The translations under genes and the position numbers were made by a program. This document shows positions 83 through 32,000 of a stretch of 32,000 nt of DNA, in pieces. The DNA comes from an uncultured Eubacteriales bacterium. Its GTDB lineage: Bacteria > Bacillota > Clostridia > Oscillospirales > Oscillospiraceae. Where the stretch lies: positions 5,153-37,152 of the forward strand of contig UROF01000025.1 of assembly GCA_900549475.1 (NCBI GenBank), read 5' to 3'. How positions within the stretch are numbered: the stretch's first letter is position 1; each line of letters starts with the position of its first letter. The notes below the pieces were generated by a model. That model was not told the origin of the DNA. It saw nothing but the letters and a program-made list of their open reading frames with translations, and did not search any database.

Positions 83-512
83 GGGGAGGGCTGGTGCCAC
101 TGAATCAGCGGGCAGCGGCCCTCAGCGCTGTTTTGTCTCCGACGGGTTCACTTTTGGACGCCCAAAAGTGAACCGAAAAAGCGCCAGCCCCCTTCGGGCT
201 GGACCCCCGCTTTTGTCCAATCGGACGCCATCAGGGGAGGGCTGCGCAGCCACTGAGACGCCGCGGCATGCTTCTCGTCGGCGCACCCCGCGCAACAAGA
301 AACATCCCTCAGCCCGAGGGCCGTCAGGCGAAGTCAGACACCCGCCGCACCGATTACGAGGGGCCAGCGGCCCGCGGTATTTCAGTGGCTGCCCGGTATC
401 AACCCTGATACAGACTGATTGGACAAAAGCGGGGACCGGGGTGGCCCCGGCGCTTTTTTGGTGACTTTTTGTGCGTACAAAAAGTTACCCGGGTCCGGGG
501 CGGGAAGCCACG
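83..512. repeat. Foldback multi-hairpin intergenic repeat, copy A (full palindromic copy with a short apex)
   Basis: The left arm has hairpin H1 at 145-174 (GGTTCACTTTTGG-acgc-CCAAAAGTGAACC), hairpin H2 at 184-202 (CCAGCCC-ccttc-GGGCTGG) and the core CCCCGCTTTTGTCCAATCGGAC at 205-226. The right arm mirrors it: core CTGATTGGACAAAAGCGGGG at 415-434, H2' at 436-450 and H1' at 460-489. The inner arms are CAGCCACTGA (247-256) and TCAGTGGCTG (382-391). The same modules recur at 1087-1348, 5903-6431, 14101-14733, 17603-18418 and 31850-32000. Confidence 0.8.
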
Positions 513-518
513 GGAGGC

Positions 519-719
519 TTATCGCTGGCGGCAGACCAGCTCATCCAGGGTAATGTCGTACAGGTCTGCCAGCGCAATGAGGGTCTCCATGGGCGGCGTA
601 CGGTCGCCGTGCTCATAGTATTGATAGACCCGCAGGGAGATCCCCAATTTTTCGGCAATCTCCTGCTGCTTCAGCCCTTTGGATAATCGCAGGGACAGCA
701 GGTGTTCTGAAAATGTCAT
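519..719 (-). CDS. XRE-family helix-turn-helix transcriptional regulator (66 aa)
   Basis: The translation MTFSEHLLSLRLSKGLKQQEIAEKLGISLRVYQYYEHGDRTPPMETLIALADLYDITLDELV is a classic Cro/C1 HTH. An AAAGAGGG ribosome-binding site lies upstream of the ATG at 719. The longer ORF start at 746 has no RBS. Confidence 0.85.
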   Translation of the reverse strand: MTFSEHLLSLRLSKGLKQQEIAEKLGISLRVYQYYEHGDRTPPMETLIALADLYDITLDELVCRQR

Positions 720-1070: not shown

Positions 1071-1086
1071 GCGCTGATAGAACCAA

Positions 1087-1348
1087 CCCTCAGCCCGAGG
1101 GGCGACAGCCGAAGTGAGATTCCCGCCGCACCGATTACGAGGGGCCAGCGGCCCTGCAGAAATTCAGTGGCAACGCAGTATCAAGACTTGATACAGACCG
1201 ATTGGGCAAAAACGGGGTCCGGGGTGTCCCCGGCGGCGTTTTGGTTACTTTGCCGCCGAGGGCAAAGTAACCCGCGCTTACGGCGCGGAATATCCCCAAA
1301 CAGCCTGAAGGGCTGAAACAAGAAACATTCAGAGGAATCCTCCTCTGA
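1087..1348. repeat. Foldback-repeat family, copy B (single right-arm half-unit)
   Basis: It contains CCCTCAGCCCGAGGG, CCGCCGCACCGATTACGAGG and TTCAGTGGC, then the core CCGATTGGGCAAAAACGGGG at 1198-1217. H2' follows at 1219-1233 and H1' at 1243-1272 (GGTTACTTTGCC-gccgag-GGCAAAGTAACC). Three further hairpins follow: H3 at 1272-1288, H4 at 1301-1315 and H5 at 1329-1348 (TCAGAGGA-atcc-TCCTCTGA). No matching left arm is present. Confidence 0.8.
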
Positions 1349-1376: not shown

Positions 1377-3374
1377 TTACGAAATATCCGCCAGATCCAA
1401 AAACTTATATCCGTTCTCGGCGATGTGCTCCTTACGCCCCTGGAGATTGTCCCCCAGCAGCAGGTCAAACATGGCGGCGGTGGCCTCCGCATCCTCGGGC
1501 ATCACCTTGATGAGCCGCCGGGTCTCCGGGTTCATGGTGGTCAGCCACATCATGTCCGGGTCGTTCTCGCCCAGACCTTTGCTCCGATCCACCTTCACCT
1601 TTTTCCCCTCCAGGCCCTTGAGAATCTCCGCCTTCTCCCGCTCGGAGTAGGCAAACCAGGTCTTGTCCCCGCTGTTGATCTCAAAGAGGGGGGACTCGGC
1701 GATATACACATACCCCTCCTGGATGAGGGTGGGGCAGAGACGGTAGAGCATGGTCAGAATCAGCGTCCGGATCTGGAAGCCGTCCACGTCCGCATCGGTG
1801 CAGATGACCACCTTGCTCCACCGGAGATTCCCCAGGTCAAAGGCGCTCAGCTCCTTCACGTGCTTGTTCTGGACCTCCACGCCGCAGCCCAGCACCTTCA
1901 TCAGGTCCGTGATGATCTCACTTTTGAAAATACGGGCGTAATCCGCCTTCAGGCAGTTCAATATCTTGCCCCGGACCGGCATGATCCCCTGGAACTCCGC
2001 GTCCCGGCTCAGCTTTACGCTGCCCAGAGCGGAATCGCCCTCTACAATATAGAGCTCCCGGCGGCTCACGTCCTTGGTCCGGCAGTCCACAAACTTCTGG
2101 ACCCGGTTGGCGATGTCGATGGTGCCGGAGAGGTTCTTCTTGATGTTCAGCCGGGTCTGCTCCGCCCGCTCCCGGCTGCGCTTGTTCACCAGCACCTGGC
2201 CGGCTACCCGCTCAGCGTCGGCGGGATTTTCGATAAAGTAGATCTCCAGGCGGCTGCGGAGGAACTCCGTCATGGCCTCCTGGATGAATTTATTGGTGAT
2301 GGCCTTCTTGGTCTGGTTTTCGTAGCTGGTCTGGGTGGAGAAGTTACTGCTGACCAGCACCAGACAGTCCTCCACATCCGCCCAGGTGACCTTGCTCTCG
2401 TTTTTCTGGTACTTGCTGTTCTGGCGCAGCCATGCGTCGATGGCTCCCACAAAGGCGGAGCGGGTAGCCTTCTCCGGACTGCCTCCATGCTCCAGCCAGC
2501 TGGAGTTGTGGTAGTGCTCAATGATGGCCACCCGGTTGGAGAAGCAGAAGGCCGTCGACAGCTTTACCTTGTACTCGTCCTTGTCGGCACGGTCCCGGCC
2601 CCGGCGCTCCGCCTCCCAGAACACCGGCAGGGTCAGGCTGTCCTCACCCGCCAGCTCTTTCACATAGTCGGCGATGCCGTTCTCATAGAAGAACTCCTCG
2701 GTCTCAAACTTCCCCGGGGCAGTCTCGTTCTTGAACACAAAGGTGATACCGGCGTTGACCACCGCCTGGCGCTTCATGACGCCGGTGAAGTAGTCCGCCG
2801 GGATGGCGATATCGGTGAACACCTCCAGGTCGGGAAGCCACCTCGTACGGGTGCCGGTGCGCTTTTTGGTGAGAGGGGTCTTTTGCAGCTCCTCTCCCTT
2901 TTTGCCCTTTACCTTGCCCTTTTCAAAATGGAGCTGATACTCATAGCCGTCCCGCCAGACGGTGACGTCCATCCAGGCGGAGGAGTACTGGGTGGCACAG
3001 GAGCCCAGACCATTGAGGCCCAGGGAATACTCGTAGTTCTCGCCCTGGTTGTTGCCGTACTTGCCGCCGGCGTAGAGCTCACAGAACACCAGCTCCCAGT
3101 TGTACCGCTTTTCCTTCTCGTTCCAATCCACCGGGCAGCCCCGGCCCGCGTCCTCTACCTCCACGCTGTGGTCCAGGAAACGGGTGACGGTGATCTTTTT
3201 GCCGTGGCCCTCCCGGGCCTCGTCGATGGAGTTGGACAATATCTCAAATACGGCGTGCTCGCAGCCCTCCAGGCCATCGGAGCCAAAAATGACACCGGGC
3301 CGTTTCCGGACCCGGTCGGCTCCCTTCAGGGCACTGATGGACTCGTTGCCGTAGCTTGGTTTCTTTTCTGCCAT
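1377..3374 (-). CDS. Type IIA DNA topoisomerase subunit B (GyrB/ParE family, 665 aa)
   Basis: The N-terminus has GHKL ATPase motifs (RKRPGVIFGS, EILSNSIDEA, GLNGLG). A Toprim EGDSA motif (LYIVEGDSALGS) and PVRGKILN are also present. A GGAGGAA ribosome-binding site precedes the start. No A subunit is adjacent, so I cannot decide between gyrB and parE. Confidence 0.95.
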   Translation of the reverse strand: MAEKKPSYGNESISALKGADRVRKRPGVIFGSDGLEGCEHAVFEILSNSIDEAREGHGKKITVTRFLDHSVEVEDAGRGCPVDWNEKEKRYNWELVFCELYAGGKYGNNQGENYEYSLGLNGLGSCATQYSSAWMDVTVWRDGYEYQLHFEKGKVKGKKGEELQKTPLTKKRTGTRTRWLPDLEVFTDIAIPADYFTGVMKRQAVVNAGITFVFKNETAPGKFETEEFFYENGIADYVKELAGEDSLTLPVFWEAERRGRDRADKDEYKVKLSTAFCFSNRVAIIEHYHNSSWLEHGGSPEKATRSAFVGAIDAWLRQNSKYQKNESKVTWADVEDCLVLVSSNFSTQTSYENQTKKAITNKFIQEAMTEFLRSRLEIYFIENPADAERVAGQVLVNKRSRERAEQTRLNIKKNLSGTIDIANRVQKFVDCRTKDVSRRELYIVEGDSALGSVKLSRDAEFQGIMPVRGKILNCLKADYARIFKSEIITDLMKVLGCGVEVQNKHVKELSAFDLGNLRWSKVVICTDADVDGFQIRTLILTMLYRLCPTLIQEGYVYIAESPLFEINSGDKTWFAYSEREKAEILKGLEGKKVKVDRSKGLGENDPDMMWLTTMNPETRRLIKVMPEDAEATAAMFDLLLGDNLQGRKEHIAENGYKFLDLADIS

Positions 3375-5851: not shown

Positions 5852-5867
5852 GAGATGATGTTGATTC

Positions 5868-5897
5868 GGGGCCGGTCCTCCGGGACCGGCCCCTTTT
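5868..5897 (+). terminator. Intrinsic terminator of metG
   Basis: The hairpin GGGGCCGGTCC-tccg-GGACCGGCCCC is followed by TTTT. Confidence 0.85.
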
Positions 5898-5902
5898 CTG
5901 CC

Positions 5903-6431
5903 GGTGCGCCGTCCCCGGACCCGGTGTTTGCTATTGGGGGCCTTCCCGGCCCCAAACCCCGGGTTCACTTTTGGCCGCCCAAAAGTGAACCGAAAAAGCG
6001 CCAGCCCCCTTCGGGCTGGACCCCCGCTGTTGTCTAATCGGACACCCCCAGCCCTGCCGCTGTGGTGCCACTGAACCAGTGCCTTTTGGCATCTGATCTG
6101 CGGCGGGTTGCGCGTCCAGCTTCGGCTGTCGCCCTGTTAAAGGGGTAGAACCATCTGTCTGTTTCGCATAATCAGAAGCGTCTATCGACTCGAGGGCCGT
6201 CAGGCGAAGTGCGCAGACCGCCGCACCGATTACGAAGGAGCCGGAGGCCCCGCGGTATTTCAGTGGCAACCGGGCATCTCCCTTGCTTGTGTCCGATTGG
6301 ACAAACAGAGGGGGGTCCGGGGTCTCCCCGGCGCGCTTTTGCCTACTTTTCCCGCGAAGGAAAAGTAGGCCTGCGGAGCATACCCAGCCCGGAGGGCTGA
6401 TAAAAGGAGATTCAGAGGAACCATCCTCTGA
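5903..6431. repeat. Foldback multi-hairpin repeat, copy C (full palindromic copy)
   Basis: The left arm has H1 at 5962-5991, H2 (CCAGCCC-ccttc-GGGCTGG) and the core at 6022-6043. The inner arms are GTGCCACTGAAC and TTCAGTGGCAAC. The right arm has the core at 6293-6313 and H1' at 6341-6370 (GCCTACTTTTCC-cgcgaa-GGAAAAGTAGGC). H4 and H5 (6412-6431) follow. Confidence 0.8.
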
Positions 6432-6481
6432 TACCATCCCCCGGCCGGTGGGAACCGGCAAAACAAGAAAGGAGCCCCGCC

Positions 6482-10399: not shown

Positions 10400-10438
10400 A
10401 ACTCTTCCCGGACACTCTCTGCCGGAAAAAAACAGGCA

Positions 10439-10477
10439 GGGCGGCTCCCCCCGATCGGGGGGAGCCGCCCTCTTTTT
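10439..10477 (+). terminator. Intrinsic terminator of adh
   Basis: The hairpin GGGCGGCTCCCCCC-gatc-GGGGGGAGCCGCCC is followed by TCTTTTT. Confidence 0.85.
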
Positions 10478-14100: not shown

Positions 14101-14733
14101 TGCCGGGGCTGCGGCCCCGGTGCCCGGTTTTTGCGGGGCCTACCCGGCCCAGGCGGCATATCCGAAGTAAGCCGCTTCGGGCTTCGGTTCCCGGGCCTAC
14201 CCGGCCCGGACCCGGGTAACTTTTTGTACGCACAAAAAGTTACCAAAAAGGCGCCGGGGAGACCCCAGACCCCCGTTTTTTCCCAATCGGACACCTGCAA
14301 AGGAGCACTGCGCAGCCACTGAACTACCGAATCCTTCGGGTATCTGATCTCCGCCGGGTATCTCGTCCGGCTTCGGCTGACACCCTTTTGAAGGGGAAGA
14401 TGAATCTTTTTTCTGCCGCGAACTGCCTGCGCCTATGAAAAGCAACCAGGTTTCCGATAAGAAAAACGTGCAAAGTCCCCCATCCCGAGGGGCGACAGCC
14501 GAAGTGGGATACCCACCGCACCGATCACGAGGAGGCCGAAGGCAAAGCGGTATTTCAGCGGCAGCCGGGTATCACCCCTGATCGTGTCCGATTGGGCAAC
14601 AGCGGTGGTCCGGCCCGAAGGGGGCCGGCGCTTTTTCGGTCCACTTTTGTGCGTACAAAAGTGGACCCGCCGGAGGCAAAACAGCGCTGAGGGCCGCTGC
14701 CCGCCCCCTTTGAACCCCCGGGGTGCGGGGTGG
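14101..14733. repeat. Foldback multi-hairpin repeat, copy D (full palindromic copy)
   Basis: The left arm has H1 at 14215-14244 (GGTAACTTTTTGT-acgc-ACAAAAAGTTACC) and the core at 14270-14292. The right arm has the core at 14588-14608 and H1' at 14638-14667 (GGTCCACTTTTGT-gcgt-ACAAAAGTGGACC). The distal right end is the reverse complement of the distal left ends of copies A and E. An internal direct repeat GGGCCTACCCGGCCC lies at 14136-14150 and 14193-14207. Confidence 0.8.
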
Positions 14734-16847: not shown

Positions 16848-17600
16848 ATGAAACTGATTTCCTGGAACGTCAACGGCCTGCGTGCCTGCCTGCAGAAGGG
16901 CTTTCTGGACTTCTGCCGGGACAGCGGCGCCGACATATACTGCCTGCAGGAGACAAAGCTCCAGGCAGGCCAGGCGGAGGTGGACCTGCCCGGTTACCAC
17001 ATGTACTGGAACTACGCCGACAAGAAGGGCTACTCCGGCACCGCCATCTTTACCCGGCAGGAGCCTCTCTCTGTGACCTACGGCTTCGGTGAGGACCTCC
17101 ACCGCCACGAGGGCCGGGTCATTACCGCCGAATTTCCCGACTTCTATCTGGTGTGCTGCTACACCCCCAACGCCCAGGACGGCCTCAAGCGCATCGACTA
17201 CCGCATGCAGTGGGAGGACGACTTCCGCGCCTACCTCACGGAGCTGGATGGGAAAAAGCCGGTGGTCCTCTGCGGCGACCTGAATGTGGCCCACCAGGAG
17301 ATCGACCTGAAGAACCCCGGCCCCAACCGGGGCAACGCCGGTTTCTCCGACGAGGAGCGGGGCAAGATGACGGAGCTGCTCTCTGCCGGATTCGTGGACA
17401 CCTTCCGCCATCTGTACCCGGACCGTACCGGGGCCTACAGCTGGTGGAGCTACCGCTTCAACGCCCGGAAGAACAACGCCGGGTGGCGGATCGACTACTT
17501 TATCGTTTCCCAGCGGCTCACCGACCGGGTGGCAGCAGCGGACATCCTCTCCGATGTGTACGGCAGCGACCACTGCCCGGTACTGCTGGAGCTGAAGTGA
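16848..17600 (+). CDS. xth: Exodeoxyribonuclease III (AP endonuclease, ExoA/Xth family)
   Basis: Diagnostic segments are [26 protein letters not shown] and SDHCPV. Confidence 0.95.
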
Positions 17601-17602
17601 GA

Positions 17603-18418
17603 AAACTCCCGGGGCGTCCTGCCCCGGAGCCTCAGCCTCGCACCGGCTGGGCGGATGCAGTCAACCGATGCAGGACTGATTCGCCCGTCGCCGGGCGGGC
17701 AGGAACGCAGCGGGGCCGACTTTAGTCCCGGAGCCCGGGGACTTCCGAAGGAGCCAGAAGCGGCCCTCAGCGCTGTTTTGTCTCCGACGGGTCCACTTTT
17801 GTACGCACAAAAGCGGACGGAAAAAGCGCCAGCCCCCTTCGGGCTGGACCCCCGCTTTTGTCCAATCGGTCATTATCAGATTTGAAACTTCCCTGCCGCT
17901 GAAGCAGCGCTTTTTGGCATCTGATCTGTGGCGGGTTGCTCGTCCAGCTTCGGCTGTCGCCCTGTTAAAGAGACAGGCGAATCTGAGTTTTGTGTCTGGC
18001 CATTGCGCCTATCAAAACTGCGCAGGTTCGCGTCAGCAAAAAAGAAACGCCCCTCAGCCCGAGGGCCGACAGGCGAAGCGGGATACCCACCGCACCGATT
18101 ACGAGGGAACCGTAGGCCCCGCGGAAATTCAATGGCAACCGGGTATCCCCCTTGCAGGCGTCCGATTGGACAAAACGGGGTCCGCAAGGTGAATTGGCCG
18201 AAGGCCAAGAGAGGGTGGCCTGGGCCAGGGGAACCCCGGCGGCGTTTTCACCCGCCCACAGGCGGGCGCTTACGAGGCCAACCGCCGCATGGCGGCGGCT
18301 CTTAGGCCGAGTGGGTTACTTTGCCGCCGAGGGCAAAGTAACCCGTGCCGGAGCACGGAATACCCATAAAACATCCCGAAGGGTTAATAAAGAGACTCTC
18401 AGAGGCCCCCTCCCCTGA
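17603..18418. repeat. Foldback multi-hairpin repeat, copy E (largest and most complete copy)
   Basis: The left arm has H1 at 17791-17818, H2 at 17830-17848 and the core at 17850-17871. The long inner arms run roughly 17891-17965 and 18050-18150. The right arm has the core at 18160-18180, an extra hairpin-rich insertion at 18183-18312 and H1' at 18314-18343. H3, H4 and H5 follow, ending at 18418. Confidence 0.8.
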
Positions 18419-18420
18419 TG

Positions 18421-18460
18421 AAAACAACGAAAAGAGCCGTCCCCGTATGGGGACGGCTCT
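18421..18460 (-). terminator. Intrinsic terminator of rpsT
   Basis: On the minus strand the hairpin AGAGCCGTCCCC-atac-GGGGACGGCTCT is followed by TTTCGTTGTTTT. Confidence 0.85.
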
Positions 18461-18479
18461 CTTGGTTTGCTTGTCAAAA

Positions 18480-18743
18480 TCAGCCGACGCTGTTGAGCTT
18501 CAGAGTCATGGCGCTCTTCTTGTGAGCGGCATTGTTCTTGTGCAGAATGCCCTTGGCAGCGGCCTTATCCACGGCCTTGACTGCGACCTTGTACGCGCCC
18601 TCGGCCTCGGTGCGATTGCCTTCGGCGGCAGCGACCTCAAACTTCTTGACAGCGGTCTTCATGGCGGAACGCTCGGCCTTGTTGCGGGCATTGCGCGCCT
18701 CAGCCACCAGCACGCGCTTCTTAGCGGACTTAATATTCGGCAA
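18480..18743 (-). CDS. rpsT: 30S ribosomal protein S20
   Basis: The sequence PNIKSAKKRVLVAEARNARNKA is typical of S20. A TTG start at 18743 lies 7 nt after a GGAGGAGG site. The GTG at 18752 overlaps the ribosome-binding site. Confidence 0.93.
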   Translation of the reverse strand: MPNIKSAKKRVLVAEARNARNKAERSAMKTAVKKFEVAAAEGNRTEAEGAYKVAVKAVDKAAAKGILHKNNAAHKKSAMTLKLNSVG

Positions 18744-22384: not shown

Positions 22385-22425
22385 ACAAAAAATCACGCCG
22401 GATCTTTCCACAGATCCGGCGTGAT
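22385..22425 (-). terminator. Intrinsic terminator of the PadR-operon membrane protein gene
   Basis: A 14-bp stem ATCACGCCGGATCT pairs with AGATCCGGCGTGAT. On the minus strand it is followed by TTTTTT. Confidence 0.85.
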
Positions 22426-22443
22426 TTGTGTATAGCGTGGGTT

Positions 22444-31827: not shown

Positions 31828-31849
31828 CAAGGAGCGGCGCTCCTTTGAC

Positions 31850-32000
31850 CAGCGGGCGGGGGCTGTGTGTCCCCAAGCCCCGGGATTTTCTGAAGGGGCC
31901 AGCAGTGGCCCTCGACGCTGTTATGCCTCCGGCGGCCCCATTTTTGGACGCCCAAAAATGGGGGAAAAAACCGCTGGGGAGACCCCAGACCCCCATATTT
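31850..32000. repeat. Foldback-repeat family, copy F (left arm only, cut by the window end)
   Basis: GGCCCTCGACGCTGTTATGCCTCCGGCGG is followed by H1 at 31936-31963 (CCCCATTTTTGG-acgc-CCAAAAATGGGG). H2 lies at 31974-31988 (CTGGGG-aga-CCCCAG) and is followed by ACCCCC. It is nearly identical to the left arm of copy D. Confidence 0.7.

Follow-up and report, generated by a model that had tools for sequence, protein, structure and literature searches.

Introduction

Bacterial intergenic spacers harbor several families of multi-copy repeats with inverted or complementary segments. BOX elements of Streptococcus pneumoniae and the enterobacterial repetitive intergenic consensus (ERIC) or intergenic repeat unit (IRU) sequences of Enterobacteria are modular repeats of one hundred to several hundred nucleotides (nt) with mutually complementary ends; their modules are inserted or vary in number, and they are transcribed with the neighboring genes and act at the RNA level. 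Correia elements of Neisseria and other bacterial miniature inverted-repeat transposable elements (MITEs) are likewise intergenic and multi-copy, have inverted arms, and can carry terminators or promoters. The attC sites of integrons conserve a structure while their sequence varies, and function as single-stranded hairpins. Here, we describe a family of palindromic repeats, and in particular its hairpin H1, in 32,000 nt of DNA from an uncultured Eubacteriales bacterium (contig UROF01000025.1; this whole stretch is hereafter called the window).

Repetitive extragenic palindromes (REP) are short palindromes located at gene ends, for which roles in transcription termination and mRNA stability have been proposed (PMC6006769, PMC2817692, PMC3733652). 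Their hairpins have a fully paired basal stem of 7 to 20 nt, a loop of 2 to 5 nt, and a unit length of 21 to 65 nt (PMC6006769), dimensions within which H1 falls (12- to 13-bp stem, 4-nt loop, unit of 28 to 30 nt). One group of REP, tagged by a terminal CGTC, has a stem of 8 to 9 bp with A-T in the first two positions, a loop of 4 to 5 nt, and a CCA tail (PMC3733652). Work on interspersed palindromic repeats has concentrated almost wholly on Proteobacteria and a few pathogens. A word search for Firmicutes or Clostridia in two REP surveys gave no mention of either (PMC2817692, PMC3733652), and a third survey lists only three Bacillota genomes (PMC12306157). No description of the present family was found in the literature searched. 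Rfam gave no match over the whole window at gathering thresholds, and a relaxed search (E ≤ 1) over positions 17600 to 18500 returned only two chance-level matches, both on an adjacent terminator.

Results

H1 recurs ten times in the window within a common arm

A preliminary description of the window had reported ten copies of H1 and proposed that compensatory substitutions preserve its stem. All ten copies are present, eight of them perfectly paired and two (460–489 and 17791–17818) with one mismatch each. Every copy is intergenic, and eight form four inverted pairs, the partners lying 250 to 500 nt apart as the left and right arms of composite elements (E1 to E4); the remaining copies belong to a lone right-hand unit (U2) and to a further composite (E5). 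In the list below and throughout, the outward strand is the strand read from the core of an element toward its flank, and the strand given for each H1 copy follows it.

145–174, minus strand: H1 of the E1 left arm, GGTTCACTTTTGG/CCAAAAGTGAACC; perfect, 13 bp
460–489, plus strand: H1 of the E1 right arm, GGTGACTTTTTGT/ACAAAAAGTTACC; 13 bp with one G·T on the outward (plus) strand
1243–1272, plus strand: H1 of the lone unit U2, GGTTACTTTGCC/GGCAAAGTAACC; perfect, 12 bp, loop of 6 nt
5962–5991, minus strand: H1 of the E2 left arm; perfect, 13 bp, same stem as at 145–174, loop different by one base
6341–6370, plus strand: H1 of the E2 right arm, GCCTACTTTTCC/GGAAAAGTAGGC; perfect, 12 bp
14215–14244, minus strand: H1 of the E3 left arm, GGTAACTTTTTGT/ACAAAAAGTTACC; perfect, 13 bp
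14638–14667, plus strand: H1 of the E3 right arm, GGTCCACTTTTGT/ACAAAAGTGGACC; perfect, 13 bp
17791–17818, minus strand: H1 of the E4 left arm; 12 bp with one G·T on the outward (minus) strand, which reads as A·C on the plus strand
18314–18343, plus strand: H1 of the E4 right arm; same stem as at 1243–1272, perfect, 12 bp (13 bp if taken as 18313–18344)
31936–31963, minus strand: H1 of the E5 left arm, CCCCATTTTTGG/CCAAAAATGGGG; perfect, 12 bp, in an element within which the window ends

The stem thus measures 12 to 13 bp, the loop 4 nt (6 nt where the closing position is unpaired), and the unit 28 to 30 nt; in an orthologue of the 17791–17818 copy (locus L170), the stem is perfect. The window contains 13 perfect hairpins whose stem is 12 bp or longer and whose loop is 3 to 8 nt. 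In 100 dinucleotide-preserving shuffles, the mean number was 0.03 and the highest 1, which excludes a chance origin. Eight of these 13 are copies of H1, and the other five are ordinary gene-end hairpins. The H1 copies have folding energies between -10.5 and -19.6 kcal/mol; relative to shuffled sequences, their z-scores lie between -4.4 and -7.1.

When aligned from the core outward, the ten copies share one common arm of about 120 nt, which runs through CCGATTGG, an A-tract, a G+C-rich hairpin (H2), CGC with a T-run, H1, CCG, and variable hairpin-rich tails. H1 is always preceded by H2 and the T-run and never stands isolated; it is a module of a larger mosaic repeat, not an independent element. 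The T-run follows H2 on the outward strand in 10 of the 10 window arms, and a terminator scan flags H2 in the same orientation. No T-run follows the stem of H1 on either strand, and H1 is therefore not itself a terminator.

Pairing is maintained in H1 while its sequence varies

We collected further copies of the family by pattern and protein searches. A genome scan with a loose gapped pattern (CCGATTGGNNAA-N18-40-GGCG-N1-3-TTTT) yielded mostly chance matches; the true loci among the matches listed were L066, L067, and L113, from two metagenome-assembled genomes (MAGs) of Oscillospiraceae. A stricter core pattern recovered 53 metagenome contigs, nearly all from the human gut, with 52 true copies and one chance match (L145). 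Scanning viral contigs with the core pattern gave no match, so that the repeat is not phage-borne in that collection. Look-ups of the window proteins added 30 orthologous contigs of the same species. The sample used for covariation comprised 86 sequences (the window and 85 loci, designated by L-numbers), for a total of 584 kb. Arms were located with a profile of the segment upstream of H1, H1 itself being excluded from the profile. This search found 162 arms, nearly all of which are followed by H1, the exceptions being copies cut at contig ends and one disrupted copy in L157.

The 162 arms provided 43 distinct 34-nt H1 sequences with more than 20 different fully paired stems, a diversity spanning at least four species-level lineages. 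In a gapless alignment anchored on the loop, 94.5% of the cells were standard-paired, compared with 68.5% in shuffles (0 of 500 as high), and sliding the 3′ partner brought pairing to 36 to 58% of the cells. The covariation score over this larger sample reached 0.668 against 0.20 in shuffles (0 of 500 as high). Ten of the 13 pairs are altered on both sides, against a mean of 9.0 in shuffles (111 of 500 as high). When the commonest standard pair type of each of the 13 pairs is set aside, 24 further types remain in total, against a mean of 19.8 (12 of 500 as high). These values are to be read with caution in that the anchor of the alignment is the hairpin itself and that part of the signal, in columns 7 to 9, is a one-base register shift mirrored in both arms, a compensated indel and not a substitution.

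Intermediates between stems are also found. In H1, GGTGAC/GTCACC and GGTAAC/GTTACC are linked by GGTGAC/GTTACC (G·T), giving a full pathway. The adjoining H2 offers two pathways of the same kind: CCAGCCC/GGGCTGG, CCGGCCC/GGGCTGG (G·T), and CCGGCCC/GGGCCGG, and then CCGGGG/CCCCGG, CTGGGG/CCCCGG (T·G), and CTGGGG/CCCCAG.

The count of distinct sequences, the number of stems, and the pairs changed on both sides support the proposal that pairing, rather than primary sequence, is maintained in H1. The accompanying suggestion that the hairpin is independent of sequence holds only in part. The outer 3 to 5 bp and the inner 2 to 3 bp do vary, whereas two parts are near-constant, namely, the CG at the center of the loop and the stem core ACTTTT/AAAAGT (with ATTTTT or ACTTTG as alternatives). 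Double changes had also been reported for two neighboring hairpins. The one in H3 is correct but small, consisting of a single pair that changes from C-G to T-A and for which a T·G intermediate exists. By contrast, the H5 stem TCAGAGGA/TCCTCTGA does not covary, and its copy at 18398–18418 carries a one-sided change that produces an A·C mismatch. More generally, the short hairpins H4 and H5, near H1, retain uncorrected mismatches.

Mismatches are asymmetric between strands

Mismatches were counted as distinct types on the outward strand. H1 shows nine G·T or T·G types against one internal A·C and one A·C at a terminal position, while the corresponding counts are 3 against 0 in H2 and 1 against 0 in H3. 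Over the three hairpins, the total is about 13 against 1 or 2, with a probability under symmetry of about 0.001 to 0.004 (binomial), and the bias toward G·T on the outward strand is alike in left and right arms. A binding site in duplex DNA or a cruciform would be expected to give symmetric mismatches; the asymmetry thus argues for a hairpin formed in a single strand, and this pattern in the sequences suggests that the H1 structure is probably RNA.

Elements exchange modules in blocks

Spacers that carry the repeat are far more variable than the adjoining genes. The metG-tatD spacer (window 5852–6481, compared with L174 to L183) measures 631 to 862 nt, while the flanking coding DNA is almost invariant. 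At this locus, strains with identical TatD differ in the left H1 (GGTTCAC..GG, GGTTCAC..GT, or GGTCAC..TCC), in the right H1 (GCCTAC..CC or GGTCAC..TCG), and in the inserted modules. Such mixing of modules beside identical proteins indicates that the elements evolve by block exchange. Blocks can be small, as in L179 versus L176, where the exchange is restricted to the inner stem and loop of H1. Moreover, recombinant stems with a breakpoint within H1 were found in L198 (GGTAAC/GTCACC) and L195 (GGTTCAC/GTGGACC), both mismatched and each seen once. In every window element, the left H1 differs from the right H1, so that the pairing preserved is local and not arm to arm.

Block exchange and cassette spread also mean that copies are not independent events, which must be far fewer than the copies themselves. 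Nevertheless, one and the same H1 type can be combined with as many as five classes of H2 and four types of tail. Thus, instead of the two or three clonal subfamilies that the preliminary description had set against its own proposal, we found more than 20 stems, shuffled relative to H2 and to the tails.

Composite elements are built of inverted arms around a conserved core

The arms are paired in inverted orientation around a directional, sequence-conserved, non-coding core of about 200 to 300 nt, as seen in colinear BLAST alignments of whole elements. The composite elements and U2 are all intergenic and occupy most of their spacers. Their positions, and those of H2 and of a recurrent core 17-mer, are as follows.

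85–520, plus strand: E1, composite (inverted arm, core, arm)
1079–1348, plus strand: U2, lone right-hand unit (core, H2, T-run, H1, H3, H4, H5), starting about 8 nt past the stop codon of the open reading frame (ORF) 747–1070
5938–6431, plus strand: E2, composite, between metG and tatD
14189–14730, plus strand: E3, composite, between an ECF S-component gene and a spoVAC-like gene
17727–18418, plus strand: E4, composite, between an exo/endonuclease/phosphatase gene (250 aa as called) and rpsT, with two additional hairpin modules in the right arm
31869–32000, plus strand: E5, left part of a composite downstream of recF, cut by the window end
6001–6019, minus strand: H2 in the left arm of E2; G+C-rich and terminator-like, with CGCTTTTTC after the hairpin when the outward strand is read
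184–202 (minus), 436–450 (plus), 1219–1233 (plus), 6317–6331 (plus), 14254–14268 (minus), 14610–14628 (plus), and 17829–17847 (minus): H2 of other arms
345–361, plus strand: core 17-mer CCGCACCGATTACGAGG, found also at 1126–1142 and, with 1 or 2 substitutions, at 6221–6237, 14516–14532, and 18090–18106

The core conserves sequence and not structure. Its blocks CCGCACCGATTACGAGG, ATTTCAGTGGC, and CCGATTGG are almost invariant across 41 units (window 296–460 and equivalents), the hexamer CCGATT occurs twice in it about 75 nt apart, and the conserved blocks may be protein-binding sites. We also considered that the unit is a gene for a structured small RNA and rejected this candidate: in 41 right-hand units, RNAalifold gave support to nothing beyond H2 and a 3-bp hairpin, and a scan of the E2 and E3 cores found no promoter-like site.

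Each composite has as its left half an inverted copy that has diverged and that bears, on the plus strand, a hairpin of the C(UUCG)G type (CAGCTTCGGCTG). In the E4 right arm (18180–18313), a module of about 46 nt is inserted inside H2 (GCAAGGTGAATTGGCCGAAGGCCAAGAGAGGGTGGCCTGGGCCAGG), and a 65-nt module (CACCCGCC...GCCGAGTG) lies between the T-run and H1, which in this arm is thus separated from the T-run by a hairpin-rich insert. Both inserted modules are built of small hairpins and recur at other loci and in other strains.

The family is patchy among relatives

The window is a chromosomal origin region with a G+C content near 0.60 that carries a gyrB/parE-like gene, metG, tatD, gpr, spoIIP, dnaA, dnaN, and recF. 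Those of its proteins that were looked up occur only in metagenome assemblies, and the relatives of its RecF include MAGs labelled Oscillibacter sp. and Oscillospiraceae bacterium. Among elements with both neighboring genes callable, these genes are co-directional in 46 of 62 cases, convergent in 12, and divergent in 4, as given by a crude caller based on G+C content at third codon positions over partly redundant loci. Lone units start 8 to 14 nt past a stop codon.

The spacer between recF and a remA-like gene could be followed across relatives ordered by RecF identity.

RecF identity 99–100% and 89%: element present
RecF identity 82%: element present, core in the opposite orientation
RecF identity 77%: spacer shrunk to 2 nt, with no family member in 37 kb
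RecF identity 72%: different core, flanked by a hairpin and T/A-run as well as by H1-like hairpins of 13 bp whose stems are new (GGGTACTTTTTGT, GTTACTTTTCTTG)

H1-like hairpins beside a hairpin and T-run therefore recur in related species at 89, 82, and 72% identity. Since the core they flank in the last of these is a different one, H1 and the layout of the arm are of greater age and wider distribution than the core. In the species at 82% identity (L206, 11105–12031), the core is opposite to that of the 89% species (L204, 11105–11969) and of the window (31828–32000), which would fit an inversion between the inverted arms. In the species at 77% (L208, 11113–11115), recF and a downstream 86-aa gene are separated by only 2 nt; the element is thus dispensable at this site and patchy among relatives.

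The 86 sequences include a sole pair of occupied and empty sites (L144 versus L162), where a 296-nt unit-bearing spacer is replaced by 73 unrelated nt; neither a target-site duplication nor a clean junction was found at this single pair. In two contigs (L180, 1692–2109, and L182, 1860–2574), the tatD-proximal arm is joined to other upstream genes (mgtE and tRNA_edit/DUF6199, respectively), and the core of L182 is flipped relative to tatD. Either the elements have recombined with one another, or the assembly is chimeric at the repeat.

Other features of the window

The palindrome GCACAATTGTGC occurs twice at 737–790, between a small, putatively XRE-type gene on the minus strand (about 530–720) and the divergent ORF 747–1070; the two copies are probably an operator pair. 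A gene for a GyrB/ParE-type topoisomerase subunit lies at 1377–3374 on the minus strand. On related contigs, the canonical gyrB-gyrA pair follows recF, the remA-like gene, and bPH_2, and the window gene is therefore probably a second, parE-like paralogue. Two long perfect hairpins are unrelated to the repeat family. The first, at 10438–10471, is the perfect 34-nt palindrome AGGGCGGCTCCCCCCGATCGGGGGGAGCCGCCCT, which can be read as two 17-nt arms without a gap or as a 15-bp stem closed by a loop of 4 nt; the second, at 22390–22427, has a stem of 16 bp and a loop of 6 nt. Both are probably gene terminators.

Discussion

Possible roles of H1

The reading that we favor, and hold about as firmly as its negation, is that H1 is a 12- to 13-bp hairpin module under structural constraint, in a mosaic multi-copy intergenic family of uncultured gut Oscillospiraceae, that forms a stem-loop in read-through RNA. 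The hairpin would form in one strand only, most likely in RNA from outward transcription through H2 and its U-tract. Transcription out of the core would meet an intrinsic terminator in H2 and its T-run, and H1 would be a stable stem-loop in those transcripts that read past the terminator. From the sequence, we infer that it could then serve as a block to 3′ exonucleases, as a processing signal, or as a second barrier, as do the stem-loops of REP, BOX, and ERIC. Copies with a broken stem would be purged by selection, and new stems would arise via G·U intermediates and then spread through recombination.

Several points weigh against an RNA stem-loop. Because H1 lies downstream of the H2 U-tract, a terminated transcript would not contain it, and the proposed role needs read-through. 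A simple scan of two cores, those of E2 and E3, found no sigma-70-like promoter, and RNAalifold finds little covarying structure in the core. In addition, the G·T excess comprises only about 13 events, at least five of which are C-to-T on the outward strand, and strand-biased deamination without selection could be the source of the bias; with or without deamination, the outward strand is the special one. Lastly, the presence of the bias in both arms would require divergent transcription, inversion of the core, or exchange of arms between sides.

A role of H1 in single-stranded DNA is, in our view, unlikely. The hairpin would be cut and rejoined at its foot by a dedicated enzyme, such as an HUH/Y1 transposase of the RAYT (REP-associated tyrosine transposase) or IS200 type or another recombinase, which would move or exchange modules; it would be retained because the enzyme requires it, as in REP, the ends of IS608, or integron attC. 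Its size and shape fit those of REP hairpins (7- to 20-bp stem, 2- to 5-nt loop; PMC6006769), the copies occur as inverted pairs, and modules are exchanged in blocks, including the inner stem and loop of H1 only (L179 versus L176). The conserved stem core and loop CG could be recognition elements, and G·T is also the best-tolerated mismatch in DNA hairpins. However, the GT[AG]G or CGTC guide is absent at the H1 foot, and enzymes of IS200/IS605 act on one strand at both ends, whereas here the favored strand differs between arms. Furthermore, the only occupied and empty pair shows replacement of the whole spacer with no clean junction. A tblastn search of the 584 kb with IS200 TnpA and Escherichia coli RAYT queries also found no Y1/RAYT homologue, its one weak match (L161) being a HAD-like ORF, although this is a weak test with approximate queries and an incomplete sample.

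Rather improbable is an explanation by DNA mechanics without function, in which intrastrand template switching at quasi-palindromes, together with gene conversion, keeps stems perfect and creates apparent compensation. It is well established that short quasi-palindromes mutate through template-switch correction, copies clearly exchange blocks, recombinant stems have their breakpoint in H1 (L198, L195), and register shifts of the stem are mirrored in both arms. Such a process, however, does not predict a one-strand excess of G·T over A·C. It also leaves unexplained why a species whose core is different still has the stem core, the loop CG, and the position beside H2 and the T-run, and why the neighboring H4 and H5 keep uncorrected mismatches.

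More speculatively, and with considerable doubt, the whole element could be an undescribed functional unit, in which a non-coding core with the 17-mer CCGCACCGATTACGAGG, insulated on both sides by outward terminators, flips or is exchanged between the inverted arms, H1 being the single-strand handle of a dedicated protein that drives cassette exchange. If this were true, the hypervariability of spacers beside identical genes would be an active, programmed process and not passive decay.

It is very unlikely that H1 works as duplex DNA, as a palindromic operator to which a dimeric protein binds through the half-sites ACTTTT/AAAAGT. These hexamers are indeed the most conserved part of the stem, and the conserved sequence blocks of the core could bind proteins. 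Nonetheless, the hexamers are spaced variably, 8 to 10 bp apart, complementarity is also kept at the bases between the half-sites and beyond them, where a dimer has no need of it, and the strand asymmetry of mismatches is unexpected for recognition of a duplex. That the covariation is only apparent, with a few clonal subfamilies each inheriting a stem together with its flanks, is hardly credible, for although many copies share a stem (e.g., 20 of GGTGACTTTTTGT) and some stems are bound to one tail type, the stems number more than 20, the standard pair types include 24 beyond the commonest, stems are shuffled relative to H2 and tails, new stems occur in other species (e.g., GGTTCCTTTGCC, GCCTACTTTTCCC, GGGTACTTTTTGT, and GTTACTTTTCTTG), and G·U intermediates exist.

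The family fills many spacers of abundant, uncultured Oscillospiraceae of the human gut, where it probably shapes transcript ends and may seed rearrangements. Its spacers could be used as strain-level markers in metagenomes and are a likely source of assembly breaks. Two features stand out: in both arms, G·T is tolerated asymmetrically between the strands, and spacers beside identical genes are extremely mosaic from allele to allele. With its many natural variants and strand-asymmetric mismatches, H1 offers a clean test case for whether stems are kept up at the RNA or the DNA level.

Comparison with known repeats

Several known systems share one or another property of the family. Like integron attC sites, H1 conserves structure while its sequence varies. 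It differs from them in having no RYYYAAC/GTTRRRY core sites (its outer stems are GGTNAC/GTNACC, GCCTAC, and CCCCAT), no extrahelical bases, the stems being perfect, and neither a cassette array nor an integrase; the copies lie 5 to 14 kb apart between housekeeping genes. H2, with its upstream A-tract and downstream T-run at gene ends, resembles a bidirectional intrinsic terminator. Correia elements and other MITEs share the inverted arms, the intergenic location, the multiple copies, and a presence that varies between relatives. The present elements, in contrast, lack defined terminal inverted-repeat ends, and their outer tails are mosaic and differ between copies. Since neither a target-site duplication (one case) nor defined ends were seen, the family is not a classical MITE.

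The likeness to BOX and ERIC lies in the modular intergenic repeat, the complementary ends, and the variable or inserted internal modules. There is no sequence relationship with either, and the arms here hold local hairpins that are better conserved than the arm-to-arm pairing, each arm carrying in addition a terminator-like hairpin.

With REP, bacterial interspersed mosaic elements (BIME), and REPIN, the family shares short extragenic palindromes in many copies, inverted pairs in mosaic arrays, location at gene ends, and compensated stems. REPIN hairpins are short-spaced, whereas partners here are 250 to 500 nt apart across a conserved core, and the family further differs from REP in that each hairpin is coupled to a terminator-like hairpin and T-run, and in that its host belongs to a Firmicute family. 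Neither GTAG nor GTGG, the forms of the GT[AG]G tetranucleotide, is present 0 to 2 nt 5′ of the H1 foot; what precedes the hairpin is a T-run (TTTTC, TTTTG) when the outward strand is read, and CGACG, CCCGG, or CCGCG when the opposite strand is read. Some tail types do contain CGTC or CGCC, though always 3′ of H1 on the outward strand, and the H1 stem of 12 to 13 bp with G-C at its foot is unlike that of the CGTC-tagged REP. The absence of the GTAG and CGTC tags places the family outside the tagged REP super-families. Taken together, and by analogy of architecture, this family is the same kind of thing as REP/BIME/REPIN, BOX, and ERIC, that is, an interspersed mosaic repeat of gene ends with compensated hairpin stems.

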